Source: a virus (lineage: Duplodnaviria; Heunggongvirae; Uroviricota; Caudoviricetes). Taken from it: a DNA stretch of 64,000 nucleotides. The notes under the pieces were generated by a model, which was given only the letters and a program-made list of their open reading frames with translations, was not told the origin of the DNA and searched no databases. Positions 37,989-63,771 of this stretch are shown in pieces. The stretch spans positions 1,630 through 65,629 of the IMG/VR virus record IMGVR_UViG_3300021399_000101. One strand, 5' to 3'. Position 1 is the first letter of the stretch; every line of letters starts with the position of its first letter. The position numbers and the translations under genes are program-made.

Positions 37989-38034
37989 ACCCAAATAATG
38001 GTTTTGTCAAGATAAATTAGAGGATAATGTAGTA

Positions 38035-43569: not shown

Positions 43570-44928
43570 ATGAACGAAACTACAAGAACATACTACATTA
43601 ATAAAGCTGAAGAATTTGAAAAAGCTTCCAATTATAAAGATGCATTGTCTTCTTATATGGAAGCTTTTTCTATTAAAGAGTGTTTGGAAGGCGACAATCC
43701 AGATTTTTTTGAGCCTGGCTTTATAGAGGATAAAATAGCGTTTCTGTCTTATAGACTTGGAGATTTTAGAAAGGCAGTTACTTTTGGTGGAAAAGCATAT
43801 AGAGCAAACGAAAAAGACGAAAGAATTAAAAACAATGTCCCGTTTTATACAGACGCTTTGTTCTTTTTAAATAAAAAACCTATTTTTGATGGATTCATAA
43901 AAAAATATATTATTGATAATTTTTCGAGCGATACTACAATCCTTGATGTTGGAGCATATGATGGAAGATGGTCAGATGCGCTTAAAGAGCATTTCAAAAA
44001 AATAGATGCAATTGAGGCTTTTGAACCTTATGTTGAACGTTACTCCTTAAAAGAAAAATACAATAATGTTTTTGTTCAGGACGTATGTGATTTCAAATTT
44101 AAACATTATGATTTGATTATAATGGGTGATGTTCTTGAGCATTTGCCAATTGAAAAAGCACAGCAACTTATTAAGAAAATATATTCTAAGTGCAAGCAGC
44201 TTTTAATAATAGTGCCATATGAATACCCCCAAGACGAATACGATGATAATAAATATCAAATTCATGTTCAAGAAGACCTTACAGACGAGATATTTAAAGA
44301 GAGATATCCAGGATTTGATTTGCTAGCGCACGATGAAATAAGAGGGGCTTATGTAAAAGAAGGAACCTGTAGTGAAGCAACTGAAATTACATATACTGGC
44401 GAAAACCCAAGAACCCTTGAGGCCGGATTGATTTACTTTGAAAGCCGTGAATATAGCAAAGCACTTGGAGTATTCAGAAACTCATTAGAAGAAATGAGCA
44501 ATGAACATAAAGCAATAATGAAGTATTATTCAGGACTTTGCTACACAAGAAACAACGAGAACACTTTAGAGGCTTTAAAATATTTTATTGATGCGGTTGA
44601 ATTGCTTCCTATTTTTGAAGAAGCATATGTAGAGCTGTTCGCACTTTTAGAGAAATTTGAGTTATGGGGTGATTTAGAGTATTATATAAGGCTTGCTCTA
44701 AAACATAAAGAAGAAATGGAAATGCCAGATAATATGAAGAATGAATGGAAATCAATTCTTTTCATTCAAATGACTTTGGCCCTTTTCAAGCAAGAAAAAT
44801 ATTTTGAGGCTTATGGATATGCGACATTAGCTCTTGATATACCGACTAGCGACGAAAGAAAAAAGATTGCTCAAAATAATTTTGACCAGCTTAAAGAAGC
44901 ACTTTGGAGTACATTACAACTACAATGA
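43570..44928 (+). CDS. TPR - class I SAM methyltransferase - TPR protein
   Basis: TILDVGAYDGRW, AIEAFEPY, YDLIIMGDVLEHL; TPR helices on both sides. Confidence 0.8.
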   Translation: MNETTRTYYINKAEEFEKASNYKDALSSYMEAFSIKECLEGDNPDFFEPGFIEDKIAFLSYRLGDFRKAVTFGGKAYRANEKDERIKNNVPFYTDALFFLNKKPIFDGFIKKYIIDNFSSDTTILDVGAYDGRWSDALKEHFKKIDAIEAFEPYVERYSLKEKYNNVFVQDVCDFKFKHYDLIIMGDVLEHLPIEKAQQLIKKIYSKCKQLLIIVPYEYPQDEYDDNKYQIHVQEDLTDEIFKERYPGFDLLAHDEIRGAYVKEGTCSEATEITYTGENPRTLEAGLIYFESREYSKALGVFRNSLEEMSNEHKAIMKYYSGLCYTRNNENTLEALKYFIDAVELLPIFEEAYVELFALLEKFELWGDLEYYIRLALKHKEEMEMPDNMKNEWKSILFIQMTLALFKQEKYFEAYGYATLALDIPTSDERKKIAQNNFDQLKEALWSTLQLQ

Positions 44929-46463
44929 AAACATGCATTTACACAATATGTAAAAACGACTCTAAATTTATAGATAAATGGTTTGACTCTTTAAAAGATT
45001 ATGATTGCATTGCAGCAGTAGTCCATGACAGCAAAGACAATACAGCAGAAAAACTTTTAGCTTATGGAGCTAAAGTAGCTTTCACCCATTATCAGAATGA
45101 GCCAAACACCGCTGAAGAAGACGCTTTAAATTTTGCTAAACAAGTAGCGCCAGATTGCGATAACTTTGTGTTTACTCCTATTAACAGAACTGATGAATAT
45201 TTGAGTGATGATGCTTCAATATCAGAACAAGAAAGCAGGCTAGTTGAATATTATTATGGTATTAAAAACTATGAAGAAGCATATAGGCACGCTATTTTTG
45301 CTTTAGCACTTGACCCAGAAAACGAGCAGAAAAAGCATAATTGCGAAATCTGCCGCAGGTTGGTTGTAAACAAGATTTGCGTATATACGGTTTGCAGAAA
45401 TGAATCAGAGTTCGTAGAAAAATGGGTTGAAAACAATAAAGACGCAGACCACATCGTTGCTTTGGTTCACGATTGTACTGATGATACAGCTGAGAAACTC
45501 AAAGCGCTTAATGTAGATGTCGGCTATGGTTTTTATAATGAATGGAGATTCGATAATGGCAAGAACGATTCAATGCACCTTGCCTATTCACTTGCCCCGG
45601 AATGTAACATATTTGTGTTTACTTCTTTAGATGAATTCTGGGAGACGGAAGATTGGGTACGTATTGTAAAGGAATGCTGGGGCCCCGAAACTACCAAGCA
45701 ATGCTGGTACAACTTCGTTCAAACACATGATGAGTTTGAGAACGACACTGGAATAACGCATTTTAACTGGATGACATCAAGAGATCCGAAATGGCACTGG
45801 GAGTATCCAATTCATGAATCAATTTCCTATGGTGATAACGAAGAAGTAAAAGACTGTATTAATTTATTTGATGTCTTAAAACTTCAGCATCGCCCTAAAA
45901 AAGGAAAAGTCAGAAGTTATATGGACCTCCATAAGCTTAGGTGGGAAGAATATAAAGATGATATAAGCTGCCTTTATTTAATTCGTGAGAATATAATCCA
46001 TGGATTTGCTGAAGAAGCGTATAGAATAGCAAAAGATTTTGACCATGAGCATACCGATTTACAACCTGAGGAAAATGCATACATCTGGATGATGGAAGGT
46101 ATGTGTCTTGAATATTTTGGGAGAACAGGCGAAGCGCTTAAATGTTATGAAAATGCTTATGAGGTGGATAAGTCGCTAAGGTCACCCCTTATTAGAGCAG
46201 GCTTACTTTATGCAAAATGCGAAATGTATAGCAAGGCAGAAGAAATTATCGAAAAAGCGCTTAATGAAACAACAAGAAATTATACATGGCTTGAAGACCC
46301 ATGGGACTGGAGAAGTAAGCCGTATTATTGGTTGTCATATATAAATCTAAAACTTGGGAATAAAGAAAAAGCCCTGGGCTATGCACTATTTGCTTATCAG
46401 ATAGATTCAACAGATGAATTAAAAGAACATTACGAAAAAGTATTAAAAGAATGTACGTCTTAA
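44925..46463 (+). CDS. GT2-family glycosyltransferase with TPRs and a duplicated N-terminal half-domain
   Basis: ICVYTVCRNESEFVEKW...DCTDDT...SLDE...WEYPIHE; C-terminal TPRs; start MKTC at 44925 overlaps the previous stop (ATGA). Confidence 0.8.
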   Translation: MKTCIYTICKNDSKFIDKWFDSLKDYDCIAAVVHDSKDNTAEKLLAYGAKVAFTHYQNEPNTAEEDALNFAKQVAPDCDNFVFTPINRTDEYLSDDASISEQESRLVEYYYGIKNYEEAYRHAIFALALDPENEQKKHNCEICRRLVVNKICVYTVCRNESEFVEKWVENNKDADHIVALVHDCTDDTAEKLKALNVDVGYGFYNEWRFDNGKNDSMHLAYSLAPECNIFVFTSLDEFWETEDWVRIVKECWGPETTKQCWYNFVQTHDEFENDTGITHFNWMTSRDPKWHWEYPIHESISYGDNEEVKDCINLFDVLKLQHRPKKGKVRSYMDLHKLRWEEYKDDISCLYLIRENIIHGFAEEAYRIAKDFDHEHTDLQPEENAYIWMMEGMCLEYFGRTGEALKCYENAYEVDKSLRSPLIRAGLLYAKCEMYSKAEEIIEKALNETTRNYTWLEDPWDWRSKPYYWLSYINLKLGNKEKALGYALFAYQIDSTDELKEHYEKVLKECTS

Positions 46464-46465
46464 TT

Positions 46466-46490
46466 AGAGCCGCCTAAGCGGCTCTTTTCT
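46466..46490 (+). terminator. Rho-independent terminator
   Basis: AGAGCCGC-CTAA-GCGGCTCT-TTTCT. Confidence 0.8.
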
Positions 46491-46555
46491 TATAGGGCGG
46501 CCCATAAATGTCAAGATAAATTTGAGTAATATTGTTCTCTTAACAAGGAAGAAAA

Positions 46556-48088
46556 ATGGCCCAGGTAAAATTAAGAACAGATGGCGGTGCAGATTTACAA
46601 AGCGCATTGATAGTTAATGCAGCCGTAGGAACAGGACTGCCAGAAGATTTTTCTGCAAATCAACACAGCTATTTAGCATATTATAGACACACAGCGGCTC
46701 AGAACGCAAATAACTTGTCAGATGGTTGGCATGATATGAAGGCATATGTAACTAACTGCGCCACTACATCCAATCATGGTACGTTCATCCAGAACAGCTA
46801 TGGTGGCACTCCATTTCAAATATGGATTCCAGATGCTAACGATTATATCTATAAAAGATATAGCACAACTGGATTTACCGGCGGAGAAGGTTGGAAAAAA
46901 CTATCAGCTGGCTATGCAGATTCAGCTCCTTGGACTGGCGTATCTGGAAGACCTACTGCTGTATCCTCTTTCACTAATGATGCTGGATATATAACTGGAA
47001 TCACTAAAGCAACAGTTACAGCAGCTTTAGGCTATACTCCTCCAACTACAAATACTACATATAGCAACGCTACAACGTCTGCGGCGGGTCTTATGTCTGC
47101 AGCTGATAAAATAAAACTCAATGGAGTAGAAACAGGCGCTAATAAATACAGTCTTCCTACAGCTGCCACAGGAACCCTTGGCGGTGTTAAGGTAGGCGCA
47201 AACATTACAATAGATGCTTCTGGCGTAATTAGTCCTACAAAGACTGGTGTTACAGCGGCTTTAGGTTATACTCCGCTTTCAACAACTGGTAAAGCTGCAT
47301 CTGCCGGAAGCGCTGATAGTGCCGGAAGCGTCCCATGGACAGGGGTTACAAACAGGCCCACTGCTGTATCGTCTTTCACTAATGATGCTGGTTATATAAC
47401 TGGAATCACTAAAGCAACAGTAACTGCTGCTCTTGGATATACACCTCCTACCACAAACACAACATACTCTGCAGCAACCACTACTTATGCCGGTTTAGTA
47501 AAAGTAGGAAACAATATCACTATAGATGCATCTGGTGTAATTAGTCCTACAAAGACTGGCGTTACAGCAGCTTTAGGTTATACTCCTCCAACAACTAATA
47601 CCACATATAGTGTTGCAACCACCACCTATGCTGGATTAGTAAAAGTAGGAAACAATATTTCCGCGGATGCTGCAGGTGTTATCAGCCCAACTAAAACTGG
47701 TGTTACAGCGGCACTTGGATATACACCACCTACTACAAATACCACATATTCAGCTGCTACAACCACTTATGCTGGATTGGTAAAAGTGGGAAACAACATT
47801 TCAATAGACTCCTCTGGTATTATTAGCCCTACCAAAACTGGCGTTACAGCTGCTCTAGGATATACACCAACATCATCAGATACCAAAAATACCGCTGGAG
47901 CTACAAACACAACAGCTAAAATATTTTTAGTAGGAGCTACAACACAAGGAGCTGGACCGCAAACATATTCAAACTCCGCTGTATATGCGACAAACGGAGA
48001 TTTCTATGCAACAAAATTTTATGTAGGTGGTACAGTAGCTTATATTTCTTATAACACGGGAAGTGGCGCAATTGAATTTAATAATTAA
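46556..48088 (+). CDS. Tail fibre protein with repeated GVTAALGYTPPTTNTTYS modules
   Basis: Modules shared with 43170-43440 of the upstream fibre gene. Confidence 0.8.
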   Translation: MAQVKLRTDGGADLQSALIVNAAVGTGLPEDFSANQHSYLAYYRHTAAQNANNLSDGWHDMKAYVTNCATTSNHGTFIQNSYGGTPFQIWIPDANDYIYKRYSTTGFTGGEGWKKLSAGYADSAPWTGVSGRPTAVSSFTNDAGYITGITKATVTAALGYTPPTTNTTYSNATTSAAGLMSAADKIKLNGVETGANKYSLPTAATGTLGGVKVGANITIDASGVISPTKTGVTAALGYTPLSTTGKAASAGSADSAGSVPWTGVTNRPTAVSSFTNDAGYITGITKATVTAALGYTPPTTNTTYSAATTTYAGLVKVGNNITIDASGVISPTKTGVTAALGYTPPTTNTTYSVATTTYAGLVKVGNNISADAAGVISPTKTGVTAALGYTPPTTNTTYSAATTTYAGLVKVGNNISIDSSGIISPTKTGVTAALGYTPTSSDTKNTAGATNTTAKIFLVGATTQGAGPQTYSNSAVYATNGDFYATKFYVGGTVAYISYNTGSGAIEFNN

Positions 48089-48096
48089 GGTGAAAT

Positions 48097-50505: not shown

Positions 50506-50507
50506 AG

Positions 50508-51686: not shown

Positions 51687-51706
51687 AACGCAACTTAACA
51701 TGTTAC

Positions 51707-51736
51707 AAACCCAGCCTAAAAGCTGGGTTTTTATTT
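51707..51736 (+). terminator. Rho-independent terminator
   Basis: AAACCCAGC-CTAAAA-GCTGGGTTT-TTATTTC. Confidence 0.8.
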
Positions 51737-51749
51737 CTTATATAATTTT

Positions 51750-52325
51750 ATGGATAATAATTATGTTTTTGCTTTAGATGTTGACGGTGTTCTCACTGAT
51801 GGAAAGTTTTTGTGGGACGCCGAAGGAAATAAAGCTTATAAAGAATTTGGCCCAGACGATGCTGATGCTCTTAAAATTCTTGCAAGATATATGCCTGTAG
51901 TTCTTTTTTCTAAGGACGGCAAAGGCTATAAAATTTCAGAAAGCAGGGCTAACCATATGGGCTTTCCAATCTACTATATGGATACGCAAGAAAGGCTTGA
52001 TTTTATTGCCAAAGTGTTTGGTGTTTCAAATGCAATTTATATGGGAGATTCTTTCATGGATGTGCCTGTATTAAAATTGTGTAAGTATGGCATAGCCACA
52101 GATACTTCTTCACCTTATGCAAAAGAAGCAGCCGATTATGTTACTACAACAGGTGGAGGAAACAGAGCGGTTGCCGAAGCTTGTTTTTGGATTATGAAAA
52201 ACGTCTTGAAAATGAATTCTGTAGAGCTGATAACAGGCGCTTCCTTAGAGCTTGACAACAAACCATGCGAATTAAAAACTTATGAGATGGGATTATATGA
52301 TATACGAAAAAGAAATTCTAAATGA
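51750..52325 (+). CDS. KdsC/YrbI-like HAD sugar-phosphate phosphatase
   Basis: ALDVDGVLTDG, YMGDSFMDVPVL, DYVT...GGNRAVAE. Confidence 0.85.
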   Translation: MDNNYVFALDVDGVLTDGKFLWDAEGNKAYKEFGPDDADALKILARYMPVVLFSKDGKGYKISESRANHMGFPIYYMDTQERLDFIAKVFGVSNAIYMGDSFMDVPVLKLCKYGIATDTSSPYAKEAADYVTTTGGGNRAVAEACFWIMKNVLKMNSVELITGASLELDNKPCELKTYEMGLYDIRKRNSK

Positions 52326-52860
52326 AATAAAGCAAGTACTTGACTCAATAGACGATAAAGATGTAGATAAACTTGTTGAAATGATTGAGTCGTCTGATAA
52401 GGTTGTCGGCTACGGGGCTGGAAGAATGGGGTTAAGTGTTAAAGCATTCATAATGCGCCTTAATCATCTTGGCATAAATGCGTACTACGTAGATGACACA
52501 TATATCCCGCCATTAACCGAATTCGATTTGCTTCTTGTATCAAGTGGTTCTGGTGAAACCACAATGGTAAAGACATTTATGAAAAAAGCCATTGAAAAAA
52601 CCGGATGCGCTGCAGCAGTAGTCACAGGAGACAAAGATTCAAGCATGGCTAGAATGGCTAATCTTGCTGTAACATTTAAACCTTGCAACGGTGGCTTAAA
52701 TTCAGCTGATTCAATTGAAAAAATAAATTCAATCCAGCTTATGAGTACTCTTAATGAGCAGGCTACATATATTTTGTTTGATATAATAGCAAAAAGAATC
52801 GCTGATGATTTGAATATGGACACTGAAAAAACAAAGAGGTACCACTTCAATGTCGAATGA
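52297..52860 (+). CDS. SIS-domain sugar-phosphate isomerase (HxlB/PHI-like)
   Basis: VVGYGAGRMG...AFIMRLNHLG, LLLVSSGSGET, MSTLNEQ; start MIYEK at 52297 preferred. Confidence 0.85.
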   Translation: MIYEKEILNEIKQVLDSIDDKDVDKLVEMIESSDKVVGYGAGRMGLSVKAFIMRLNHLGINAYYVDDTYIPPLTEFDLLLVSSGSGETTMVKTFMKKAIEKTGCAAAVVTGDKDSSMARMANLAVTFKPCNGGLNSADSIEKINSIQLMSTLNEQATYILFDIIAKRIADDLNMDTEKTKRYHFNVE

Positions 52861-52864
52861 AAAC

Positions 52865-53020
52865 ATGATAGTTTTTTCAGATTGGTTACTTGTATGTAAT
52901 ATGGATTATGATAAGAAATTTATTGACCTGAATAAATTAAAAAACATCAAATCGCCAAATATACCTATAAAATATTTAGGAAAAATAAAAATAAACAGGA
53001 ATTTAAAGAATGTTAAATAA
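52865..53020 (+). CDS. Small 51-aa ORF filling the gap between the SIS and epimerase genes
   Basis: Own translation MIVFSDWLLVCNMDYDKKFIDLNKLKNIKSPNIPIKYLGKIKINRNLKNVK; below the ORF-track cutoff; overlaps the next start. Confidence 0.45.
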   Translation: MIVFSDWLLVCNMDYDKKFIDLNKLKNIKSPNIPIKYLGKIKINRNLKNVK

Positions 53021-53738
53021 AATAACCGCTTCACTTATTTGCATGGATTTATCTGATATAAAAACAGATATAGACACACTTCTTGATAACGGAATAAATT
53101 CTCTTCATGCCGATTTTATGGACAATACATTTGTTCCGAGGCTTGGAATAAGTCCAGAGCTGATAAAGTGGATAAAAAACAGGTACGGCGACAATGTTCA
53201 TATAGATTCTCATCTTATGGTTCAAAATCCATATCAGTGTATAGATGTAATAGCTCCGTTCTCAGACTGGGTTTTCTTCCATTATGAAGCAGTTTCTGAC
53301 CCCGTGAGAATATTGCAGAAGCTCTGTGAACATGATGTAAAGAAAGGGATAGTTTATAATATAGGGACAGATACAAACGAATCTTTGATTAATACAAATC
53401 TTGTCAATGGTGTTATGTTTATGGGTATCAGCCCTGGGGTTCTGGGAACAAGGTCCTGGCCTGAAATCTTAAAAGAGAAGATGATACAACACAGATGTAT
53501 AATTGAGCGTATAATAAAGCATGATGACATTCCTGTATTTCTTGACGGAGGAATAGATTTCAATTCAATAGGTGAACTTACAAAAGACTTGAATATTATA
53601 TTCAGTTCTTGCAAGGGAGCAGATAAGGTTGTCTGCGGCTCATCCACTTTGTTTAAAATAGATGATGATACCTGCCTCATGGATAGAGAGGAAATGATTA
53701 AATTCAATATCCGCAGAATTGAAGAGGCAATGCAATGA
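53010..53738 (+). CDS. Ribulose-phosphate 3-epimerase family (Rpe/AlsE-like)
   Basis: ASLICMD, LHADFMDNTFVPRLG, DSHLMV, FHYEA, FMGISPG, LDGGI, VCGSS. Confidence 0.9.
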   Translation: MLNKITASLICMDLSDIKTDIDTLLDNGINSLHADFMDNTFVPRLGISPELIKWIKNRYGDNVHIDSHLMVQNPYQCIDVIAPFSDWVFFHYEAVSDPVRILQKLCEHDVKKGIVYNIGTDTNESLINTNLVNGVMFMGISPGVLGTRSWPEILKEKMIQHRCIIERIIKHDDIPVFLDGGIDFNSIGELTKDLNIIFSSCKGADKVVCGSSTLFKIDDDTCLMDREEMIKFNIRRIEEAMQ

Positions 53739-53956
53739 AAGTAAAAGAACTTATAAAAAAGCTTGAAACTTATGACCCTGAATATGATATGATGATAGCG
53801 CTTCCTCCGGGATGGTATAAAGAGGAAGACACTGAAAACGAAGAGATTTGGGAAAAAGACGGTTGGAGTCTTGATTCCATAGATTATGTAATTATCTCAG
53901 ATAAAAACAGATTTGTGTCAGTATGCCCTATTAACGCTCCAAAGGAAATAGAATGA
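53735..53956 (+). CDS. Small hypothetical protein (MxVKELI-type N-terminus)
   Basis: MKVKELIKKLETYDPEYD; coupled on both sides. Confidence 0.7.
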   Translation: MKVKELIKKLETYDPEYDMMIALPPGWYKEEDTENEEIWEKDGWSLDSIDYVIISDKNRFVSVCPINAPKEIE

Positions 53957-55572
53957 GAACAGTAGTAATTCCTTCTGCCGGTACAGGCTCACGTCTCGGC
54001 GATTTTACTAAAAACTATAACAAAGCCATGTGTACGCTTGGCCCCAAGCCTGTAATCTCTTACATTATAGAACATTTCACCAAGGAAGATGAGATTATAA
54101 TTCTTCTTGGATATAAAGGAGACTTACTCAGGCAGGTAGTCAAAGCATGCTATCCTGACTGGAATATAAAATTTGTCGAGGTTGATATTTATGAAGGCCC
54201 AAGAAGCGGTCTAGGTTATTCTCTTTCAAAAGCATATGATTATTTACAAAAGCCGTTTATCTTCTGGCCCAATGACACGCTATTAGAAAACGACATAAAT
54301 GACATGCTTTATGATAACAACTGGATTATAGTCGGCAGCCACGAGCAAGATTCCAGAAGTTATAGACACGCTATAGGAAATAAGAATGATAACAGCTTGA
54401 CGATGATTCTTCCAAAATCTTCAATTGGATATAAATTTTCTTATCCTTATACTGGAGTTTGCTTCGTAAAAGACTATGAAAACTTTTGGGACGCTTTTCG
54501 TTCTAATAGAGAAACTTTTATAAATGAAGGAGAGGTAATCGGTTTAAACAATCTCGATAACATAATAATTTATCCTGCAGAAAGATGGATTGACACAGGC
54601 AATAAAGAGCTGTTTGAAAAAGCCAAAATCGAATACTCAAGAAGAATGGAAGAAACAGTACTGGAAAAACCAGACGAGGCAATTTGGTTTATTGATAGCA
54701 GAGTTATCAAATTCCATATTGATAAAAAGTTTATATCTGATAGGGTAAAAAGATTTGGCACATTACTTTCTGATGGCCAAAAAAAGGCCGGAATGAAAAT
54801 ACCGAAGCTTCTTTATCATGATGAGAATGTTTATGTCTATAAAAGAGAACCTGGGATAATAGCTTCCAGGGAAATAGATATAAGTGTTTTTGACCGTCTC
54901 CTTGATGGGTTCTTCAGGTTTAAAGAGGAAAAACTAACAGACGAAGAAGCTTTAAGAATTTATACTGATTTTTATAGAGATAAAACAATTTCCAGAATAA
55001 ATAAATTTTGCGATGAAAATGGAGAATCAGATGGAGAGCCTGTTTTTATAAATGGACTTGCGTGTAGGTCGGCTCTAGACCTTGTTAAATTAATCAATTG
55101 GGAATACATTTCAAAAAACGGAGTTTTTACAAAAAACTATCATGGAGACTTTCATCTTGAAAACATATTAATTCAAAAAGACAATTTCGTGTTACTTGAT
55201 TGGAGGCAAAACTTCGGCAAGTCTGAAATAGGCGATGCCTATTATGACCTTGCTAAAATGTGGCACTCTTTAATAGTCAATCATATGATGGTTAAAGATA
55301 TGAGGTTCACAGTTGAAAATGTCGGAAGAAACTCAATCAAAATAGACATAGACAGAACATTTATAGATACCGAATGCGAGAATGACCTTAAAAACTACAT
55401 TGAAAGAAACTTCATACTGGAACAGGCTGAATTACTTACATGCTTAATATTTCTTAATATAGCCGCTTGTCATGTTTATCCATATTCAAGGTTTTTGTTC
55501 TATCTAGGAAAATACCTACTTAACAGTTTTTATTATAGACATATAGACAGTAAAATATTTAAGACCGCTTAG
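53953..55572 (+). CDS. Bifunctional sugar-phosphate nucleotidyltransferase plus APH/choline-kinase-like kinase
   Basis: VIPSAGTGSRLG...NKAM (nucleotidyltransferase), WIDTG; C-terminal YHGDFHLENIL, LLDWR, YYDLAK (APH fold). Confidence 0.85.
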   Translation: MRTVVIPSAGTGSRLGDFTKNYNKAMCTLGPKPVISYIIEHFTKEDEIIILLGYKGDLLRQVVKACYPDWNIKFVEVDIYEGPRSGLGYSLSKAYDYLQKPFIFWPNDTLLENDINDMLYDNNWIIVGSHEQDSRSYRHAIGNKNDNSLTMILPKSSIGYKFSYPYTGVCFVKDYENFWDAFRSNRETFINEGEVIGLNNLDNIIIYPAERWIDTGNKELFEKAKIEYSRRMEETVLEKPDEAIWFIDSRVIKFHIDKKFISDRVKRFGTLLSDGQKKAGMKIPKLLYHDENVYVYKREPGIIASREIDISVFDRLLDGFFRFKEEKLTDEEALRIYTDFYRDKTISRINKFCDENGESDGEPVFINGLACRSALDLVKLINWEYISKNGVFTKNYHGDFHLENILIQKDNFVLLDWRQNFGKSEIGDAYYDLAKMWHSLIVNHMMVKDMRFTVENVGRNSIKIDIDRTFIDTECENDLKNYIERNFILEQAELLTCLIFLNIAACHVYPYSRFLFYLGKYLLNSFYYRHIDSKIFKTA

Positions 55573-55586
55573 GGCGGTCTTTTTTT
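55561..55586 (+). terminator. Rho-independent terminator
   Basis: AAGACCGC-TTAGG-GCGGTCTT-TTTTT. Confidence 0.85.
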
Positions 55587-55651
55587 ATAGAGCTAACAAC
55601 CAAGGTAATTAAAGATAATTATGTATAATTTTGGCCTTTAGGAGATAATAA

Positions 55652-58600: not shown

Positions 58601-59731
58601 AGTGCTGCTACAGCAGCAGATGGAAAGAGGTCTTGTTCTGCTAGTGCTGCTACAGCAGCAGATGGAAAGAGGTCTTGTTCTGCTTCAGCTGCTACAGCAG
58701 CAGAAACTGCCAGGTCTTGTGCTGCCTCAGCTGCTACAGCCGCTGATACTTCTAGGTCTTGTTCTGCTAGTGCTGCCACAGCAGCAGATGGAGAGAGATC
58801 TTGTTCTGCCTCAGCCGCTACAGTAGCAGAAACTGCCAGGTCTTGCTCCGCTTCAGCCGCTACAGCTGCTGATACCGCTAGAGCCAGTGCTGCTAGTGCT
58901 GCTACAGCTGCTGATACCGCTAGGGCCAGTGCTGCTAGTGCTGCTACAGCTGCTGATACCGCTAGGGCTAGCGCTGCATCATCCGCTACAGCTGCTTCAG
59001 GGTCGGCTACAACTGCTGATACCGCTAGGGCCAGTGCTGCTAGTGCCGCTACAGCTGCTGATACCGCTAGAGCCAGTGCTGCTAGTGCTGCTACAGCTGC
59101 TGATACCGCCAGGGCTAGCGCTGCATCATCCGCTACAGCTGCTGACACATCTGCCGCATGTGCTGCCTCGTTTGCTGCTGCTGCAAATCTTAATGGAATA
59201 AAAGACGCAGCAAGTCTGTCAGCAAGCAGAGCAGCATCTTCTGCCTCTTGTTCATCAAGTTCTGCACAAGTTTCTGCATGTGCCGCAAGTAAAGCTTACT
59301 CCTGTGCGGCATCCTATGCTGACACGAAATATACAGCCGCTGCCTCTTATGCAAATACTAAAGTAAGTAAATCGGGCGATACAATGAGCGGAGGTCTTTA
59401 TCTTCCAAGCCTCACAGCCTCTGGAAACATAATAGCAAGTTCATTTGAAGCTAACTCATCAAGAAAGCTTAAAGAGAACATAAACCCCGTAATAATTTCA
59501 GCACTTGATATTATAAAGGATGTAAACGTCGTCAATTTCAACTATATCAATGATGAGGAAAAGACACCACACATCGGATTTATTGCAGAAGATACTGATA
59601 AGATTTTGAGTACACCGCATATGAATAAAATGGATTATACAAACTGTATCGGAGTCCTTTTGAAAGCGGTTCAAGAAATCACAAAGGGAATTGACAAGCT
59701 CGAAAAGCGTATTGATAAAATAGAGAAATAA
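55652..59731 (+). CDS. Tail fibre (1359 aa): beta-hairpin repeats, Ala/Ser/Cys coiled coil, C-terminal S74 chaperone
   Basis: Repeated ..V.Q.NGKIS.. hairpins; TARSCSASAATAAD repeats; SSRKLKENI...IGFIAED...CIGVLLKAVQEI. Confidence 0.85.
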   Translation: MANTKTYFNTITSVDSVDDSNIIVVQTADSASLATMAKTTVGALRAPLKEAASSNASLVSSEASRAASSEASLAEAIASEASRAKASEASLSSSITAAIDALDTTGTYGGNGKYIKQISEENGIIVPVEETLETDIENNSTKAPTTSAIKTFVESKINGLDLNEVGGTGRLVQSVSQANGKISATAIELDSNLSSSPNKVPTSEAIYNAINSLDGEVGGTTKLVKKVEETNGKISGETIDLVDTVTNNPNAVPTSLAVYNKLGEFVTTALDALDYSSGAAGYYFDSITQNNGKILTTSKKFDTYSYQGGTAAGTWSSGAPSDLNTPTSQAVKNYTDYKAAVIDNRIDNTNYSHSQTQTGVADGTYLLQVTQSSGAIKASKAAFENATIASYVNSVSASSGSYAGRVDTAPTVRAVTEQIKRLDGRIDEANAGLTALSTGPFGSTGAYISKVEQRQGYISASTTNFATSIKASTTEADNVPPTEHAVRSAINALDVAQIGANGSYIRFVVETDGKISATPVGFDHFDAACSASAWDSVTNNNSPSTLAVKNFVLRVKSDILEDTKAMTYEGTVGSLNALKNKKPFNQGDTYIATAKFNLESDSGVQVKYNVNKGDMLICKNTPSPDPNAYDKDNFDIIGGSEYQIVFNGTTSVVNNIPVFDSTNGTVLKDSGESIDTVIQKSASAASAAACSASAAACAASSAIFADLGVEPYINSAASAASAADAARSCSASAATAADGKRSCSASAATAANTARASAVSAATAADTARSCSASAATAANTARACSASAATAASNSATAADTARACSASSATAAETARSCSASAAAAADLQRGIAKSNADAAIVSANTADTARACAASAATTADGKRSCSASAATAADTARACAASSATAASGSANTADTSRACSASAATAANTARANAATSAGAADTARACAASAATAADAQRGNAATSAGAAANSATAAATSAGAAADSATAAETARSCSASAATAADGKRSCSASAATAADGKRSCSASAATAAETARSCAASAATAADTSRSCSASAATAADGERSCSASAATVAETARSCSASAATAADTARASAASAATAADTARASAASAATAADTARASAASSATAASGSATTADTARASAASAATAADTARASAASAATAADTARASAASSATAADTSAACAASFAAAANLNGIKDAASLSASRAASSASCSSSSAQVSACAASKAYSCAASYADTKYTAAASYANTKVSKSGDTMSGGLYLPSLTASGNIIASSFEANSSRKLKENINPVIISALDIIKDVNVVNFNYINDEEKTPHIGFIAEDTDKILSTPHMNKMDYTNCIGVLLKAVQEITKGIDKLEKRIDKIEK
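57700..59200 (+). repeat. 14-residue-period (7+7) coding repeat array
   Basis: (D/E/N)(TA/GK)R(S/A)(C/S)(S/A)ASAATAA units. Confidence 0.9.
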
Positions 59732-59748
59732 AAAACAAAGATGTTTTA

Positions 59749-59779
59749 AAGAGAGCAGAAATTTCTGCTCTCTTTTTTT
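59749..59779 (+). terminator. Rho-independent terminator
   Basis: AAGAGAGCAGAA-A-TTTCTGCTCTCTT followed by a T-run. Confidence 0.8.
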
Positions 59780-59796
59780 ACCTCTTATATAATATT

Positions 59797-60606
59797 ATGA
59801 TTAAAATTTTGCATTATATAAAAGAAGACTATTCAGGCAGCGCCGAAAGATTTTGCGTAAGCACATACAAAGAACAGTATCCTGACTTTGAGTTCATGGC
59901 ATGGAAGCCGGGCTCATCCCCTCTCAGGATTCTTTATGATAATGGGGGGATTTTCATAGGTCCTCATATTTATTCAAAGAAGAGATTGCCAGATTCTTTT
60001 TTTGAAAAGTCGTTTCTCATTTTCGACAATGCATTTGAAACTGATACGGTTAATATAGATTTATGTTGCTACTCAGATTCAAAAGAGAACCCGTTGTTTC
60101 TTGAGTTCATGCAAAACGGAATCATGCCGACTTTAAGGAAAAAAGGCTTCGAGAACGATTTTAAAGTCGGATTAAATAAAAGGAAACAAAGCCTTGATGA
60201 TATTGACATTTTAAATAGTGATATTATTGGGTTTGAAAAGAAGTCTTACGAAATCTATCAGGATGCATATCTTATGGATATGAATTTTGATTTGAGCAAA
60301 ATATCAGATGCCAATTTACATTATTTGATAATAAATGAAAGCAGCGACCCAAACAAAATATTTTCAGTTGTTGAAAGTTACGGCAAAATAGACTACAAAG
60401 ATGAAAGCAAACATTTCATGATTATTGTATCTACCGGCAATCTTGATTTGACAGAGAGAATGTGTACTTTGCTTCAATATCATTGCGCTTATGAGGATAA
60501 GAGATGGGATGTGATATTTGGAGAAAAGAAAAAAATAAATGAGATAATCACTGAATATATAGGCAGAAAATTCAACGATGTTGTAAGCTGTGAGAAGCTT
60601 TTATAA
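59797..60606 (+). CDS. Degenerate GT32/OCH1-like (capsular-polysaccharide-synthesis-like) protein
   Basis: YKEQYPDFEFMAW...RILYDNGGIFI matches the GT32 N-terminal pattern, but GPH replaces DxD. Confidence 0.5.
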   Translation: MIKILHYIKEDYSGSAERFCVSTYKEQYPDFEFMAWKPGSSPLRILYDNGGIFIGPHIYSKKRLPDSFFEKSFLIFDNAFETDTVNIDLCCYSDSKENPLFLEFMQNGIMPTLRKKGFENDFKVGLNKRKQSLDDIDILNSDIIGFEKKSYEIYQDAYLMDMNFDLSKISDANLHYLIINESSDPNKIFSVVESYGKIDYKDESKHFMIIVSTGNLDLTERMCTLLQYHCAYEDKRWDVIFGEKKKINEIITEYIGRKFNDVVSCEKLL

Positions 60607-60625
60607 GCAATCATTTGCTTTTTTT
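60605..60625 (+). terminator. Short Rho-independent terminator
   Basis: AAGCAA-TCAT-TTGCTT-TTTTT. Confidence 0.55.
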
Positions 60626-60677
60626 GGTCAAGATAAAATAGAGCACTACTGCGTAAAAATATAACAGGAAGAACAAT

Positions 60678-61238
60678 ATGGCTGAAATAGTTAAACTTAC
60701 CGTTGCCGGTACAACTTACGATTTATGTGAAAATGCAACAGCCTCTGTCAGAGGACTTGTATCCACAACAACACAAACTTTTGCCGGAGTCAAAACATTC
60801 CAAGATGGATGCTATGGAGCGCTTTGGAACGACCTTGCGGATTGCATTCCTATTCAAGACGGTTTAAAACCGGAACCTGGCTATTGCTATAGTTTCAATG
60901 GGAAAGTCTATAAGAAAACAACCAAATATCTTGATAAGCAATATATAGGAATCCACTCTGATACCTATGGTTTTGCCATGGGGAAGGAAGAGGATAAGAC
61001 GAAGCTTGATATTGCAGTCACTGGATTTGTTCTTGCCTATACCGATAAAAAGTATAAACCTGGCACTCCTCTCACATGTAGCAGAAATGGCTATCTTACA
61101 AAGATAAGGCTTCTCGACAGGATATTCCACCCACATATGATTATCGCAACATACTGGAAAGACGAGCCAAACGAAACTTTCGGAAGCAAATATAAGACAG
61201 TAACAGTCAACAACAGAAACTGGGTTAAGATTCAGTAA
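60678..61238 (+). CDS. Mini-fibre protein with a peptidase-G2-like autocleavage chaperone domain
   Basis: ATASVRGLVSTTTQTFAGVKTF fibre motif, then GALWNDLAD...PG..Y...IGIHSDTYGF..G...IAVTGFV. Confidence 0.6.
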   Translation: MAEIVKLTVAGTTYDLCENATASVRGLVSTTTQTFAGVKTFQDGCYGALWNDLADCIPIQDGLKPEPGYCYSFNGKVYKKTTKYLDKQYIGIHSDTYGFAMGKEEDKTKLDIAVTGFVLAYTDKKYKPGTPLTCSRNGYLTKIRLLDRIFHPHMIIATYWKDEPNETFGSKYKTVTVNNRNWVKIQ

Positions 61239-61273
61239 ACGCAGTATATAATTATAAAGGAAGAAAAAATATT

Positions 61274-61849
61274 ATGACAATTGAACATTTTACTATTGAT
61301 GATTTTAAAGAAGGAACTGAGTTTTACACCGCAGTAATGAACAACGAGATTATCAACGCAAAGAGTCTGCCAGCAGAGGAGAAGATTGAATTGATTAAAC
61401 AGTGCTTGGTGCACGAGGAGATAACCAACCCGAGCTTGATAACAAATATCGTTCTGCTCTCATTAGGCGGTTCCCTTGATGACGACGTGTTTGAAAATGA
61501 AATCTGTCTGTTCAACTCATTGATTGAATTCATTGACATCAAGCAGGAAATAAGAAGTGAAATAACCAAGTTCAATACTCAGCTTTGCAAATATTTTATC
61601 GGAGTATTAAAGGGATATAGTCTGAAGCTTAATGAGCTTAAGATTGATATGACGAATCTTTATTGGGCCGTAATTCATTCGGTTACTTTTAATAACATAA
61701 GCAGCTTATTGAACAAAACCGATTTCAACATCTCTGAAGTCCCTGCAGTAAGAAACTCAGAGGAAATAATAGATGCGCTATGTGTGAAGAACAGCATGTC
61801 AAAAAAGCTTTTAAGCATGTTCCTTGGTAGTGAATTAATGGAGGAATAA
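61274..61849 (+). CDS. Hypothetical helical protein
   Basis: ORF with SD AAGGAAG. Confidence 0.65.
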   Translation: MTIEHFTIDDFKEGTEFYTAVMNNEIINAKSLPAEEKIELIKQCLVHEEITNPSLITNIVLLSLGGSLDDDVFENEICLFNSLIEFIDIKQEIRSEITKFNTQLCKYFIGVLKGYSLKLNELKIDMTNLYWAVIHSVTFNNISSLLNKTDFNISEVPAVRNSEEIIDALCVKNSMSKKLLSMFLGSELMEE

Positions 61850-63771
61850 TGGCTACCCCTTATGTAAAAATAGAATACATAGATAATCACCAAAGCAAAC
61901 CTGGAGACTCAGGACTAGTTCTTCAAATTAAACCAAGTACGTTATGGAAAAGCAACTCAGACGATGTTTGCCAATACTCTTATGCAGGCTTTTCAGGCTG
62001 GAAAACATATACTCCCGGAGAGTCTATAAGTTTTGGATATCCCGGCTCTAATGTAGACGGAGAAAGTGAAAGCCGGCATGGACGCATCTATTTTAGAGGA
62101 AAGCTTTCCTCTGCACATGCTATAAGCAGCAGTGAAAATCCTTGGCTGTTTAATTATACAGGTACCGATTTTGCTAGAGATGGAGTTAGATTCAGCATTT
62201 CAGGTTCAATAAGTGCTTTGTTTGATTATGAAAACCCAGACGTATCGGTTGCAAGTTCGGCTTGCGCTGGTATGTTTAAACATGACGGAGACTATAATAG
62301 TTGGATAGTATCAGCTTCAGAGCTAGAACTTGATGTAATGTCAGATCATTGCTATTCGAACATGTTTTATGATAATAATAGTTTGATTTTTCCTCCGAAA
62401 CTTCCAAGAACAACATTAAGTGAAAGTTGTTATTCACAAATGTTTGCTAACTGCGAAGGTTTGAATACTCCACCATCTCTTCCAGCAACAACGCTTGCAT
62501 CTCATTGCTATGAACGTATGTTTGCTAACTGCCTTGAATTAATAGCCGCTCCGGCTCTCCCCGCAACAACGCTTGAAGAGTTTTGTTATTATTATATGTT
62601 CAGCGGGTGTTCCGCATTGATAATACCGCCAGCATTACCTGCATTAAATGTACCATCTTATGCTTATTTCGGTATGTTTTATGCTTGCCAATCATTAGTA
62701 ATTGCCCCAAAAATTTCAGCTACATCTTTTTCAGATCATGCATGTGGAACTATGTTTACCAGTTGCACAGATTTAGTTATTCCTCCGAAAATAAACACCA
62801 CAGATGCTTCTGCTGACGAGGTGTTTCAGCAAATGTTTTTTGGCTGTAGCTCGTTGTCTGTATCAACATCCGGAACAAAGCCGCCTATATTGTTTTATAC
62901 AAATTATTCAGCCAACTCGGTTAAATCTATGTTTAGTGGTACAGCTGGTCCATATACATCTGACCCTGAACCTAATGTTAAGTATTATTCAGATCCTGGT
63001 GAAACAGTAAATGCTAAAGTGTATGACGCTCTTATAACCGCAGTATCTAAAGCAATGGAGCATTGCATAACTAGCGGAGGCACTGGCAGAAGCTCAAGAC
63101 TCTATAGAGGTCATTCAACAACTACAGCTCAACCTGGAGGTGGTGGTAGCTTTACAACAAGATTTATGGTCTATTTATTTAGTTTAAACACGACTGCTCC
63201 AAGCGGATATGTAACCAGTATTTCAGAAGACACAATAAAAAGCGACCTTGATGCATATTTAAACAGTTTAGGAATAGGTTCTACGACAGCGTTCAAGCAG
63301 GGGGCAAAGGCAGAAGCTAGGCACTATATATATTTGACACAAGCCATAGCTGAATTTATTACGGGCAAAACCATACACGTACTTAAATCGTCAGCTGGAT
63401 ATAGCCATGGTACAAACATTACCGGTAATAATATTGGTGATGCTATTATTATTAGTAATCAAAGAACAACACTTGCAGGCCCCATGGCTTATAAAACAGG
63501 CGCTGCAACATATAATAACCCAGCCCATATAAACAAAACAGAAGCCAACATAACAGAATCAGATATAAATACCATTATGACCTATTTAATTGATAGCGCG
63601 CTTAACAATAATGCTTTTATAACAACCGAAGCAAGCGGTACTCTTAAAAGTAGTTCAAGCTCTTGCAGTTCATCATGCAGCTCATCATCTAGCTCATCTT
63701 GCAGTTCATCTTGCAGTTCATCAAACAGCTGTTCAAGTTCAAGCATATTTATTGCTTACTTTAATATATAA
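61849..63771 (+). CDS. BspA/DUF285-like LRR protein fused to a domain ending in a Ser/Cys-rich tail
   Basis: P.LPATTL...CY..MF..C..L repeats; C-terminus SSSSSCSSSCSSSSSSSCSSSCSSSNSCSSSSIFIAYFNI. Confidence 0.75.
   Translation: MATPYVKIEYIDNHQSKPGDSGLVLQIKPSTLWKSNSDDVCQYSYAGFSGWKTYTPGESISFGYPGSNVDGESESRHGRIYFRGKLSSAHAISSSENPWLFNYTGTDFARDGVRFSISGSISALFDYENPDVSVASSACAGMFKHDGDYNSWIVSASELELDVMSDHCYSNMFYDNNSLIFPPKLPRTTLSESCYSQMFANCEGLNTPPSLPATTLASHCYERMFANCLELIAAPALPATTLEEFCYYYMFSGCSALIIPPALPALNVPSYAYFGMFYACQSLVIAPKISATSFSDHACGTMFTSCTDLVIPPKINTTDASADEVFQQMFFGCSSLSVSTSGTKPPILFYTNYSANSVKSMFSGTAGPYTSDPEPNVKYYSDPGETVNAKVYDALITAVSKAMEHCITSGGTGRSSRLYRGHSTTTAQPGGGGSFTTRFMVYLFSLNTTAPSGYVTSISEDTIKSDLDAYLNSLGIGSTTAFKQGAKAEARHYIYLTQAIAEFITGKTIHVLKSSAGYSHGTNITGNNIGDAIIISNQRTTLAGPMAYKTGAATYNNPAHINKTEANITESDINTIMTYLIDSALNNNAFITTEASGTLKSSSSSCSSSCSSSSSSSCSSSCSSSNSCSSSSIFIAYFNI

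Follow-up and report, generated by a model that had tools for sequence, protein, structure and literature searches.

Sugar-synthesis and glycosyltransferase genes among the tail-fibre genes of a rumen jumbo phage: a candidate system for virion glycosylation

Why should a tailed phage keep genes for making and transferring a sugar among the genes for its own fibres? The window, i.e. the whole 64,000-nucleotide stretch analysed here, comes from a 208-kb uncultured rumen phage whose record is 88% complete. The first-pass annotation of positions 43570-63771 had proposed that the phage makes its own NDP-sugar and places it on its fibres. All genes named for this region were found on the + strand, each where it had been placed, and so were the domains of the enzyme islands (TPR-methyltransferase, GT2-TPR, HAD, SIS, Rpe and nucleotidyltransferase-kinase; see the table). 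The enzyme genes alternate with Ser/Thr/Ala-rich fibre genes, with a sugar cassette and glycosyltransferase/methyltransferase genes lying between fibres, and beyond 63771 come a carbamoyltransferase, four radical SAM genes and a pair of intact GT32 genes, all still within the island. We read the region as belonging to a putative tail-fibre modification island kept in a rumen/gut jumbo-phage clade. Glycosylation of the virion fibres with a home-made sugar is the best explanation of it, to which we give about an even chance of being right.

Table. Genes and terminator-like hairpins of the candidate fibre-modification region (positions in the window)
Feature	Position	Strand	Evidence and remarks
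Giant fibre, 1530 aa	38958..43550	+	ASYASEASSALA-type Ser/Ala repeats, T-rich distal part; fibre-type PHROG matches; S+T+A 45%
TPR / class I SAM methyltransferase / TPR protein, 452 aa	43570..44928	+	Pfam Methyltransf_23 8e-10
Predicted protein-type glycosyltransferase (GT2-TPR)	44904..46463 (ATG 44925)	+	phrog_13126 2.6e-46, TPR_2 1e-7
Terminator-like hairpin	46466..46485	+	8 pairs, 6 GC, then T run; closes fibre-methyltransferase-GT2 unit
Thr-rich fibre, 510 aa, 18% Thr	46556..48088	+	PPTTNTTYS-type repeats; Phage_head_fibr 5e-6; S+T+A 40%
LamG/concanavalin-like virion protein, 802 aa	48097..50505	+	Laminin_G_3 9e-13, phrog_26670 1e-40; S+T+A 25%
Ser/Thr repeat protein, 392 aa	50508..51686	+	42% S+T, no Cys; S+T+A 50%
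Terminator-like hairpin	51707..51730	+	After fibre gene, ahead of sugar cassette
KdsC-like (C0-type) HAD sugar-phosphate phosphatase	51750..52325	+	TIGR01670 1.3e-14 (below cut-off); PDB KdsC 4um5 2e-15
SIS-domain ketose-phosphate isomerase, 6-phospho-3-hexuloisomerase type	52282..52860	+	TIGR03127 1.8e-38; PDB YckF 1e-25
Ribulose-phosphate 3-epimerase family (Rpe/AlsE-like)	53010..53738	+	PF00834 9e-31, TIGR01163 1.9e-31, allulose-6-P epimerase 3.5e-27
Bifunctional sugar-phosphate nucleotidyltransferase + APH/choline-kinase-like kinase, 539 aa	53953..55572	+	NTP_transf_3 5-109, APH 397-439
Terminator-like hairpin	55561..55581	+	Closes sugar cassette, at kinase gene
Fibre, 1359 aa	55652..59731	+	~15-residue Ala/Ser repeats with Cys; C-terminal S74 intramolecular chaperone domain; S+T+A 49%
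Terminator-like hairpin	59748..59775	+	12 pairs; after fibre gene
Degenerate GT32 paralogue, 269 aa	59797..60606	+	BLASTP 8e-18 and 2e-11 to intact GT32 genes
Small appendage or fibre-like beta-barrel protein, 186 aa	60678..61238	+	Atlas lead only: preneck-appendage-barrel-like clusters, score 0.96
Acidic 191-aa protein	61274..61849	+	Without family match
BspA-type LRR-like protein, 640 aa, 19 Cys	61849..63771	+	Atlas LRR_5 lead at 0.88; S+T+A 33%

The giant fibre gene opens a transcription unit that it shares with the TPR-methyltransferase and GT2-TPR genes: the methyltransferase gene starts 19 nt past the fibre stop codon, the two enzyme genes overlap, and the terminator search found none between the giant fibre and 46466. 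Each enzyme island had been credited with its own terminator, which is true after the GT2 and kinase genes; no terminator-like hairpin was called 3' of the GT32-like gene, and two of the hairpins follow fibre genes.

The GT2-TPR protein is composed of an N-terminal remnant of a GT-A half-domain, a complete GT-A (GT2) domain and a C-terminal TPR (~145-512, numbered from the ATG at 44925). Its AF2 model (pLDDT 89.8) has a GT-A fold at ~150-325 and helices at 333-511, and the TPR_2 match falls at residues 392-423, with the TPR directly C-terminal to the catalytic domain. The acidic residues D175, D186, D210 and D236-E237, of the kind that binds metal and nucleotide-sugar in such enzymes, are invariant across 20 homologues. 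The top structural matches of the model are SunS/ThuS (Foldseek E 2e-14; VIA Z 22.7, 21.6 and 21.5), aligned over both domains and 294-341 residues and exceeding the single-domain matches by 4-5 Z units. In the PDB, the family profile matches a single catalytic domain, that of GmaR (4e-5), the Listeria flagellin O-GlcNAc transferase (PMC9638930). A third reference point is C. difficile SgtA, a 358-aa GT-A+TPR enzyme that in vitro transfers GlcNAc from UDP-GlcNAc onto the Thr/Ser residues of GPT repeats (PMC7157674). The SunS/ThuS fold, the GmaR profile match and the SgtA-like architecture together mark the modelled protein as being of the protein/peptide-glycosyltransferase type, in agreement with the first-pass annotation.

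SunS/ThuS (7msn, 7msp, 7msk; Z 21.5-22.7) combine GT-A and helical-repeat domains, are peptide-directed and can glycosylate Cys, and two proteins of the phage island are Cys-rich; S-glycosylation of Cys in these proteins is purely speculative. Sequence identity to GT2-TPR is, however, only 12-16%, genes for a glycocin-like precursor peptide, for immunity and for a transporter are missing from the phage, and its putative substrates are large structural proteins. The resemblance to SgtA-BclA3, which is one of architecture and gene arrangement as described and not of compared sequences, comprises a soluble Cys-rich GT-A with a C-terminal TPR (~360 residues; PMC7157674), a glycosyltransferase gene directly beside the gene of a fibrous repeat protein (its substrate in C. 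difficile), and the adjacency of GT2-TPR homologues to GPT collagen-like genes in Bacillota and phage relatives. Unlike that system, this phage has no collagen-like gene, its GT2-TPR carries the second GT domain remnant, a TPR-methyltransferase and a private NDP-sugar cassette are encoded alongside, and the setting is a virion rather than a spore.

Analysis of the genomic neighbourhood of GT2-TPR homologues shows a link between this family and collagen-like genes. In bacterial loci, a collagen-like gene occurs in 18/41 (dereplicated); such genes are 11/77 of the genes at offset 1 vs 0/75 at offset 6 or more, and 15/147 within two genes vs 5/243 further away (OR 5.4, p 6e-4; gut Bacillota genomes). 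They are of the GPT type, 550 triplets having Thr as residue Y, and their placement is that of the proven C. difficile sgtA-bclA3 pair. Of the Pfam families encoded next to homologues in viral contigs, Collagen and Gly_rich_2 occur most often. Adjacency to collagen-like genes thus holds for the family and for close relatives, whereas the GT2-TPR of this genome has non-collagen fibre neighbours. None of the 229 ORFs of the genome is collagen-like, so the best-supported acceptor type for the family is missing from it.

The AF2 model of the TPR-methyltransferase (pLDDT 82) shows a methyltransferase core at ~100-266 between TPR arms, and its structural matches are generic methyltransferases only (Z about 14); action on a glycan, as had been suggested, finds no support in this generic class I fold. 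The "GT32-like" gene had been counted among the enzyme islands. A Pfam search returned no match for it, PF04488 included, and comparison with its intact paralogues just past the window (L001:8074-9120(-) and L001:9077-10120(-)) reveals IGPHI in place of the MDTDV (DXD) motif. Since the DXD motif and ~26 residues preceding it are lost, the protein is probably catalytically dead, judging from its sequence.

As to possible acceptors, Ser, Thr and Ala, whose abundance the first-pass annotation had noted, make up 25-50% of the products of six fibre genes. Cys richness is not the general fibre feature it was taken for, as counts are high in only three of the six (27 in fibre 55652-59731, 19 in the LRR-like protein and 13 in the LamG-like protein) and 0-1 in the others. 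Ser/Ala-rich repeats are common in phage fibres without a neighbouring glycosyltransferase, and composition alone is therefore weak evidence. Candidate acceptors are the Thr-rich fibre, the Ser/Thr repeat protein 50508-51686 and fibre 55652-59731, in which the pattern [RKA][SA]C[SA]AS is matched 22 times. The LRR-like protein has a C-terminal Ser/Cys tail with IFIAYFNI at its very end; the gene just past the window shares this tail and is followed by the four radical SAM genes.

The sugar cassette (HAD, SIS, Rpe and nucleotidyltransferase/kinase) can be assigned at the level of families. For the SIS protein, the hexuloisomerase model TIGR03127 scored 132 bits (cut-off 160), with an E-value of 1.8e-38 vs 2e-3 for GutQ and 9e-3 for KpsF. 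An arabinose-5-phosphate isomerase (KdsD/GutQ-type) was rejected, given that the hexuloisomerase model is best and RB69 gp55 shows no similarity (E 1.3). The Rpe-like protein is a family member only, not an Rpe equivalog (TIGR01163 109 bits vs a cut-off of 212.6), and the allulose-6-P epimerase model gave 95 bits vs a cut-off of 271. The nucleotidyltransferase half of the bifunctional enzyme matches LicC (1jyk, 5e-4).

The published system closest in logic is the Afh UDP-arabinose pathway for arabinosyl-5-hydroxycytosine DNA (RB69 gp51, gp52:53 and gp55; DLP3 gp81-83; HY126 AfhE/AfhF; PMC13326640). Both contain SIS and HAD enzymes and a bifunctional protein whose N-terminal half is a nucleotidyltransferase and whose C-terminal half is a kinase; among solved structures, LicC ranks first in both as a relative of the former half. 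The similarity of the bifunctional enzyme to RB69 p053 (6e-4) and p052 (0.01) is weak, though it includes the HGD..N kinase motif, and sequence comparison showed that the SIS and HAD proteins are not orthologous to the RB69 enzymes. The phage SIS is of the hexuloisomerase rather than the arabinose-5-phosphate isomerase type, its HAD is KdsC-like rather than GmhB-like, the cassette has an extra Rpe-family enzyme, and neither a ThyA-like gene nor a GT-B transferase was found in the 88%-complete genome. Because of these differences, the sugar is probably not arabinose and the acceptor probably not DNA.

Outside the clade, the sole relatives of the cassette (41-55% identity) are in T4-like phage contigs, in a DNA-hypermodification locus, a setting that counts for the DNA alternative in the case of the cassette. 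In six viral contigs the same cassette is flanked by a GT-B-like gene on one side and by DNA polymerase B on the other, with UvsX nearby, and a ThyA-like gene lies within ~10 kb of it in 4/4 T4-like contigs tested, the position of the RB69 arabinosylation cluster.

Phylogenetic linkage of the enzymes with the fibres, whose absence had been named beforehand as potentially refuting, was found: gene order is kept, and the number of glycosyltransferase genes co-varies with the type of the adjoining fibre. Seven related contigs carry a GT2-TPR 54-67% identical to that of the window, and the TPR-methyltransferase is 49-55% identical in relatives. All seven keep the order fibre, TPR-methyltransferase, GT2-TPR, and 5/7 (L012, L013, L016, L189 and L190) have all or most of the cassette, in the order fibre, TPR-methyltransferase, GT2-TPR, fibres, HAD-SIS-Rpe-nucleotidyltransferase/kinase, S74 fibre. 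In these five, as in the window, the cassette or most of it lies within ~10 kb of GT2-TPR; L014, which has a variant order, shows only the HAD gene within the stretch fetched, L190 is cut inside the fourth cassette gene, L188 ends early and L017 repeats L016. An extra ~370-aa GT2-like gene is present in 5/5 contigs with collagen-like genes after GT2-TPR (L012, L014, L016, L188 and L189) and absent in 3/3 without them (the window, L013 and L190). Across the clade the enzymes are kept (49-87% identity) and the fibres between them swapped: the N-terminal 157-313 residues of the giant fibre are 41-62% identical in four relatives and the remainder is hypervariable, while the slot of the Thr-rich fibre holds collagen-like genes in relatives; in L190 an N-terminus homologous to this fibre comes after GT2-TPR. 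Recurrence in seven contigs marks the enzyme-fibre arrangement as more than chance; the clade relatives are not independent observations.

Could the sugar be destined for DNA, the alternative that the first-pass annotation had itself raised? In that case the NDP-sugar of the cassette would be placed on a modified phage base, as in RB69, DLP3 and HY126, and the island glycosyltransferases would be DNA glycosyltransferases. The published UDP-arabinose pathway likewise uses SIS, HAD and bifunctional nucleotidyltransferase/kinase enzymes (PMC13326640), and the company of the cassette in the six viral contigs points the same way. However, the profile search of the 88%-complete genome found no Thymidylat_synt (PF00303), C5 DNA methylase or Glycos_transf_1 (PF00534), BLASTP with the GT-B-like protein of L004 gave no match in it, and neither did Tet_JBP in a search run without a positive control; no known DNA-base acceptor enzymes were thus found in the genome. 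The glycosyltransferase present is of the TPR-bearing, predicted protein-directed type, the cassette and glycosyltransferase genes are placed in the late structural region, and the SIS and HAD are not RB69 orthologues; we consider DNA hypermodification improbable. Only a little less improbable is a host target, with the enzymes altering a surface glycan or protein (flagellin, pilin, S-layer or wall polysaccharide), e.g. to block superinfection or to prevent re-adsorption of progeny to debris. Serotype-changing phage glycosyltransferases are well known (PMC12619734), and the closest characterised GT2-TPR enzymes target bacterial surface proteins (PMC7157674, PMC9638930). Yet no membrane-embedded transferase, flippase or lipid-carrier enzyme (polyprenyl-phosphate transferases included) was seen in the region, and a scan of the enzymes predicted no signal peptide and a TM-like segment only in the kinase, at a borderline 1.65 (threshold 1.6). 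The genes are, moreover, co-oriented and partly co-transcribed with fibre genes, and the glycosyltransferase set co-varies with the phage's own adjoining fibres.

The functions may also be split, an arrangement that we consider unlikely, but less so than either of the above: GT2-TPR and the TPR-methyltransferase would glycosylate fibres with a host UDP-sugar, and the cassette would serve another acceptor, e.g. phage DNA or the GT32 product, its place in the fibre region reflecting insertion history. As SgtA uses host UDP-GlcNAc (PMC7157674), GT2-TPR may not need the cassette. Among more distant viral GT2-TPR loci, 0 of the 80 best have it within 10 kb. The cassette also behaves as a mobile unit: T4-like contigs that are otherwise unrelated carry the same four genes. 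Terminators of its own flank it, and the motif upstream of it is unlike that of the fibre operons. Against this separation stand its proximity to GT2-TPR in the window and five related contigs and the lack of alternative acceptor machinery (ThyA-like, GT-B) in the 88%-complete genome.

For the preferred reading, glycosylation of the fibres, there are precedents among other viruses. To our knowledge, virion glycosylation in mycobacteriophages involves no phage-encoded NDP-sugar synthesis. Phage-encoded glycosyltransferases O-glycosylate the phages' own structural proteins there (Freeman et al. 2023, as summarised in PMC12619734); according to that summary they modify capsid and tail-tube subunits at the C-terminus, whereas here fibres are the candidates and the enzymes carry TPR. 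The giant viruses (chloroviruses, Mimivirus fibrils) encode sugar-nucleotide synthesis, glycosyltransferases and sugar-tailoring enzymes that serve their own surface proteins, whose modification would take place in the cytoplasm (PMC9614988), but these are eukaryotic viruses with enzymes unrelated to those of the phage. Our literature search found nothing like this autonomous glycosylation described for tailed phages.

We propose that fibre glycosylation would proceed as follows. The four-gene cassette would convert a ketose phosphate from the pentose- or hexose-phosphate pool to an NDP-sugar, with the Rpe-type 3-epimerase and the hexuloisomerase-type SIS isomerase acting first; the kinase half would phosphorylate the anomeric position, the HAD would remove the distal phosphate and the nucleotidyltransferase half would activate the sugar with a nucleotide. 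The soluble GT2-TPR may dock through its TPR domain on fibrous virion proteins and begin O-glycosylation at Ser/Thr of exposed repeats, with Cys S-glycosylation as a possible variant, and the TPR-methyltransferase and, past the window, the intact GT32 enzymes and the carbamoyltransferase could extend or decorate the product. The benefit might be shielding, stability or receptor tuning. Tentatively, and with more doubt than confidence, we suggest that the jumbo-phage clade repurposed a DNA-hypermodification sugar cassette for a self-contained virion pathway, possibly with an S-linked sugar on Cys. If so, interchangeable fibres, which some members have in collagen-like form and this one in Thr-rich or Cys-repeat form, would be coated with a rare decorated sugar by a pathway that joins private NDP-sugar synthesis, an SgtA/SunS-like initiator, GT32 extension, and methyl and carbamoyl tailoring.

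The source of the window is a single virus record, linear, 207,680 bp long and estimated to be 88% complete. The window (GC ~35%) opens with 38 kb of large plus-strand structural genes, including a tape-measure-like protein and an S74-chaperone fibre, which places the finding among the late, virion genes of a jumbo phage. A megablast search of GenBank phages with nucleotides 43570-55572 yielded no DNA-level match. Three small minus-strand ORFs break the structural block; at least one of them has a Lys-rich, hydrophobic, signal-like N-terminus followed by coiled-coil-like sequence, and they could be lysis or spanin-type genes.

The first-pass annotation had proposed a virion glycosylation system inside the tail-fibre cluster, with three enzyme islands alternating with fibre genes. 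Domain evidence locates every enzyme that it named at the expected place (see the table), and the intervening genes do encode fibre-like proteins with a high Ser, Thr and Ala content. The Cys richness claimed for the fibres applies, by composition count, to three of the six fibre genes and is not general. Each enzyme island was also thought to end at its own terminator: hairpins do lie behind both the GT2 and the kinase gene, but none was called after the third island, and additional terminator-like hairpins are found 3' of two fibre genes. The GT32-like gene of the third island is a true paralogue of two GT32 genes located shortly beyond the window's end, but it has lost the DXD motif, together with ~26 neighbouring residues. 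The methyltransferase and GT2 genes are packed straight behind the giant fibre gene, with the first terminator at 46466. Beyond the window the island goes on with four radical SAM genes, a carbamoyltransferase and two intact GT32 genes.

Features of the window discussed in the text (window coordinates)
Feature	Position	Strand	Description
Minus-strand ORFs	29762-31120	-	three small ORFs
GTCAAGATAAAT-like motifs	37942-38034, 46464-46555, 60607-60677		precede fibre operons
TPR-methyltransferase	43570-44928	+	class I SAM methyltransferase core between TPR arms
GT2-TPR	44904/44925-46463	+	remnant second GT-A domain, then GT-A glycosyltransferase, C-terminal TPR domain
GT-A remnant of GT2-TPR	44925-45360		~145 N-terminal residues, truncated GT-A domain copy
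CTTATATAAT motif	51687-51749, 59732-59796		4-5 nt before ATG of HAD cassette and of GT32-like gene
Sugar cassette	51750-55572	+	KdsC-like HAD phosphatase; SIS isomerase; Rpe-family epimerase; 539-aa nucleotidyltransferase-kinase
Cys-repeat fibre	55652-59731		22 copies of C-[SA]-A-S
GT32-like gene	59797-60606		third enzyme island
Tail of first IFIAYFNI-ending gene	63640-63771		Ser/Cys tail

We see about an even chance that the region is a fibre glycosylation island, complete with a private NDP-sugar, an SgtA/SunS-like initiating transferase and tailoring enzymes. The NDP-sugar would be consumed by the initiating transferase, GT2-TPR, and tailoring would fall to the methyltransferase and to the downstream GT32 and carbamoyltransferase enzymes; which residues accept the sugar, what the sugar is and how the phage benefits are inferred rather than observed. 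A fold search with the methyltransferase model returned only tied generic class I methyltransferases and TPR proteins (Z ~14), with no discrimination between sugar and protein.

The AlphaFold model of GT2-TPR, built on 20 homologues, is confident (pLDDT 89.8). Its top solved-structure matches are the glycocin S-glycosyltransferases SunS and ThuS, with both domains covered (Foldseek, E-value: 2e-14; VIA-align, Z: 22.7, 21.6 and 21.5, with 294-341 residues aligned), and the next VIA-align rows (Z ~17) cover the TPR part alone or the GT-A part alone. A single-sequence search of the PDB gave TPR matches only, while the family profile identified a single catalytic-domain relative among PDB sequences (4e-5), namely GmaR, the likewise TPR-bearing Listeria enzyme that adds GlcNAc to flagellin (PMC9638930). 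The nearest characterised enzymes, by fold and by profile, are thus soluble transferases acting on proteins or peptides. Relatives with enzyme forms of 718-738 residues carry additional N-terminal sequence, most with a Pfam Glycos_transf_2 match; since the longer forms keep this sequence, the N-terminal catalytic unit of GT2-TPR appears to have decayed in this phage. Candidate acceptor peptides are the GPT, PPTTNTTYS and RSCSASAATAAD repeats.

Homologues of GT2-TPR number 262 in IMG/VR, where an alignment-based search was required because a single-sequence search returned nothing, and 415 in bacterial genomes, mostly gut Bacillota MAGs. Around 22 dereplicated viral homologues the commonest neighbouring Pfam families are Collagen and Gly_rich_2, with 2OG-Fe(II) oxygenase and GT25 also recurrent. 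A collagen-like ORF is present in 18 of 41 dereplicated bacterial loci, and such genes cluster close to the homologue (11/77 genes at offset 1, 4/70 at offset 2, 0/75 at offset 6 or more; 15/147 within two genes versus 5/243 at greater distance, odds ratio 5.4, Fisher p 6e-4). Their triplets are overwhelmingly G-P-T and G-A-T. This shows a general link of the GT2-TPR family to GPT collagen-like genes, which stands independently of the glycosylation model. The same arrangement is found in C. difficile, where the gene for SgtA (CD3350), a Cys-rich GT-A+TPR protein of 358 residues, lies immediately upstream of bclA3, and SgtA adds beta-O-GlcNAc in vitro to Thr/Ser of GPT repeats (PMC7157674). Solely from architecture and context, we infer that GT2-TPR is homologous to SgtA. 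The homologue in the cultured jumbo phage PaBG is surrounded by a mixed set of genes, a context that gives no information.

The first-pass annotation had made its proposal depend on a phylogenetic linkage between the enzymes and the fibres, and such a linkage was found in the phage clade itself. GT2-TPR homologues with 54-67% identity occur on metagenomic contigs of up to 239 kb, of which seven distinct ones were compared with the window; the resulting eight observations are not independent, because the contigs are relatives. Genes upstream of the island are 59-79% identical to those of the window, while the giant fibre is conserved only over its initial 157-313 residues and is hypervariable thereafter. 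It is followed by the TPR-methyltransferase, the GT2-TPR gene(s), variable fibres, the cassette (50-87% identity) and an S74 fibre, in full order in L012, L013, L016, L189 and L190 (the last cut inside the fourth cassette gene); L014 has a variant order and L188 ends early. Three collagen-like genes, with many GPT, GST and GSQ triplets, directly follow GT2-TPR in L012, L014, L016 and L189, and at least one does so in L188. Exactly these five contigs have an extra GT2-like gene of ~370 residues, and in most of them the main enzyme also has a full second GT2 domain, whereas the window, L190 and L013 lack both the collagen-like genes and the extra gene. The window and L190 share a short enzyme form (512-530 residues) followed by a homologous Thr-rich fibre. 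The glycosyltransferase complement therefore changes together with the adjacent fibre type, as expected if the fibres are substrates. The 239-kb relative L014 has a richer version of the island (9421-21110), comprising a TPR protein, two GT2-like proteins, a methyltransferase without TPR, a GT8, a 776-residue GT2-TPR-GT2 fusion, three collagen-like proteins and a HAD gene followed directly by a carbamoyltransferase.

The two upstream motifs hint that the enzyme genes are regulated differently or give leaderless transcripts: the GTCAAGATAAAT-like motifs belong to fibre operons, and CTTATATAAT is common to the HAD cassette and the GT32-like gene, each behind a terminator. A genome-wide scan tied neither motif to a temporal class (early or late). 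In the Cys-repeat fibre, and in a fibre of the relative L013 (12231-19289, 15 copies), Cys falls within Ala/Ser repeats of ~15 residues, and this regular spacing points to a coiled coil in which Cys always takes the same position. The repeated motif loosely resembles the C-x-A/P-x-R site of anaerobic sulfatase-maturating enzymes. At 4 kb downstream of the Cys-repeat fibre come the four radical SAM genes, in tandem and immediately after two consecutive genes (the second at 14-703 of L001, the flank just beyond the window) that share an almost identical Ser/Cys tail ending in IFIAYFNI. Between the fibre genes and the sugar cassette of L190 there is likewise a radical SAM gene.

The cassette follows the logic of the published UDP-arabinose pathway for arabinosyl-5-hydroxycytosine DNA in RB69, DLP3 and HY126, whose enzymes are a SIS arabinose-5-phosphate isomerase, the bifunctional nucleotidyltransferase-kinase AfhE and the HAD phosphatase AfhF (PMC13326640). 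The 539-aa protein has the same bifunctional architecture, with the nucleotidyltransferase in its N-terminal half and the APH-type kinase in its C-terminal half, and LicC (1jyk) ranks first among solved relatives of the former half in both systems. However, it is only weakly similar to the RB69 enzyme, and the SIS and HAD proteins belong to other subfamilies (the top-scoring model for the SIS isomerase is 6-phospho-3-hexuloisomerase). The cassette is thus non-orthologous to the RB69 genes and its sugar is probably not arabinose. The heptose (GmhA/HldE/GmhB) and CMP-Kdo (KdsD/KdsC/KdsB) pathways were rejected, since the SIS protein is neither GmhA-like nor KdsD-like and KdsA is absent.

All four cassette genes recur (41-55% identity) in six T4-like IMG/VR contigs (L002-L007) that have almost nothing else in common with this phage. 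There the cassette is flanked by a GT-B-like gene on one side and DNA polymerase B on the other, near UvsX, in the same position as the RB69 arabinosylation cluster; in L004 (6917-14434) the order is GT-B-like, KdsC-like HAD, hexuloisomerase-like SIS, Rpe and nucleotidyltransferase-kinase, directly before DNA polymerase B. A divergent ThyA-like gene lies near the cassette along with UvsX, within ~10 kb in 4/4 contigs tested. Judged by this context, the cassette of the T4-like contigs very probably serves DNA modification, and, as its enzymes are not RB69 orthologues, these phages may put a sugar other than arabinose on their DNA, a modification not yet described.

For the window's phage itself we give pure DNA modification a slim chance; its 88% complete genome has no Thymidylat_synt, C5 DNA methylase or Glycos_transf_1 match, and a Tet_JBP search, run without a positive control, was empty. 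The main rival divides the island: GT2-TPR would decorate the fibres with a host UDP-sugar and the cassette would serve another acceptor. We consider this unlikely, the cassette keeping its place behind the fibres in five of the related contigs. With the kinase protein as a query, the cassette was found neither in four genomes holding GT2-TPR homologues nor among 300 sampled from the class that includes G005 (the Clostridia MAG holding L106), where only partial nucleotidyltransferase matches came up. Modification of the host is rather improbable: the glycosyltransferases could in principle act on its envelope, but the island enzymes have no signal peptides, no flippase or lipid-carrier transferase was seen, and the only TM-like segment is one borderline stretch in the kinase, which argues against an envelope role. 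The leftover probability belongs to readings outside those listed.

Mycobacteriophage particle glycosylation alters immune recognition, and as far as our literature search found, glycosylation of phage particles has been demonstrated in mycobacteriophages only. If fibre glycosylation is the correct reading, gut and rumen tailed phages would be able to make their surface glycans entirely by themselves, in the manner of giant viruses, with a bearing on host range, on resistance to gut proteases and antibodies, and on therapeutic phage design. Independently of the glycosylation model, one phage group has the four-gene cassette at a DNA-modification locus and another has it in a fibre cluster, which would make it a concrete example of the transfer of a metabolic module between modification systems that differ greatly.
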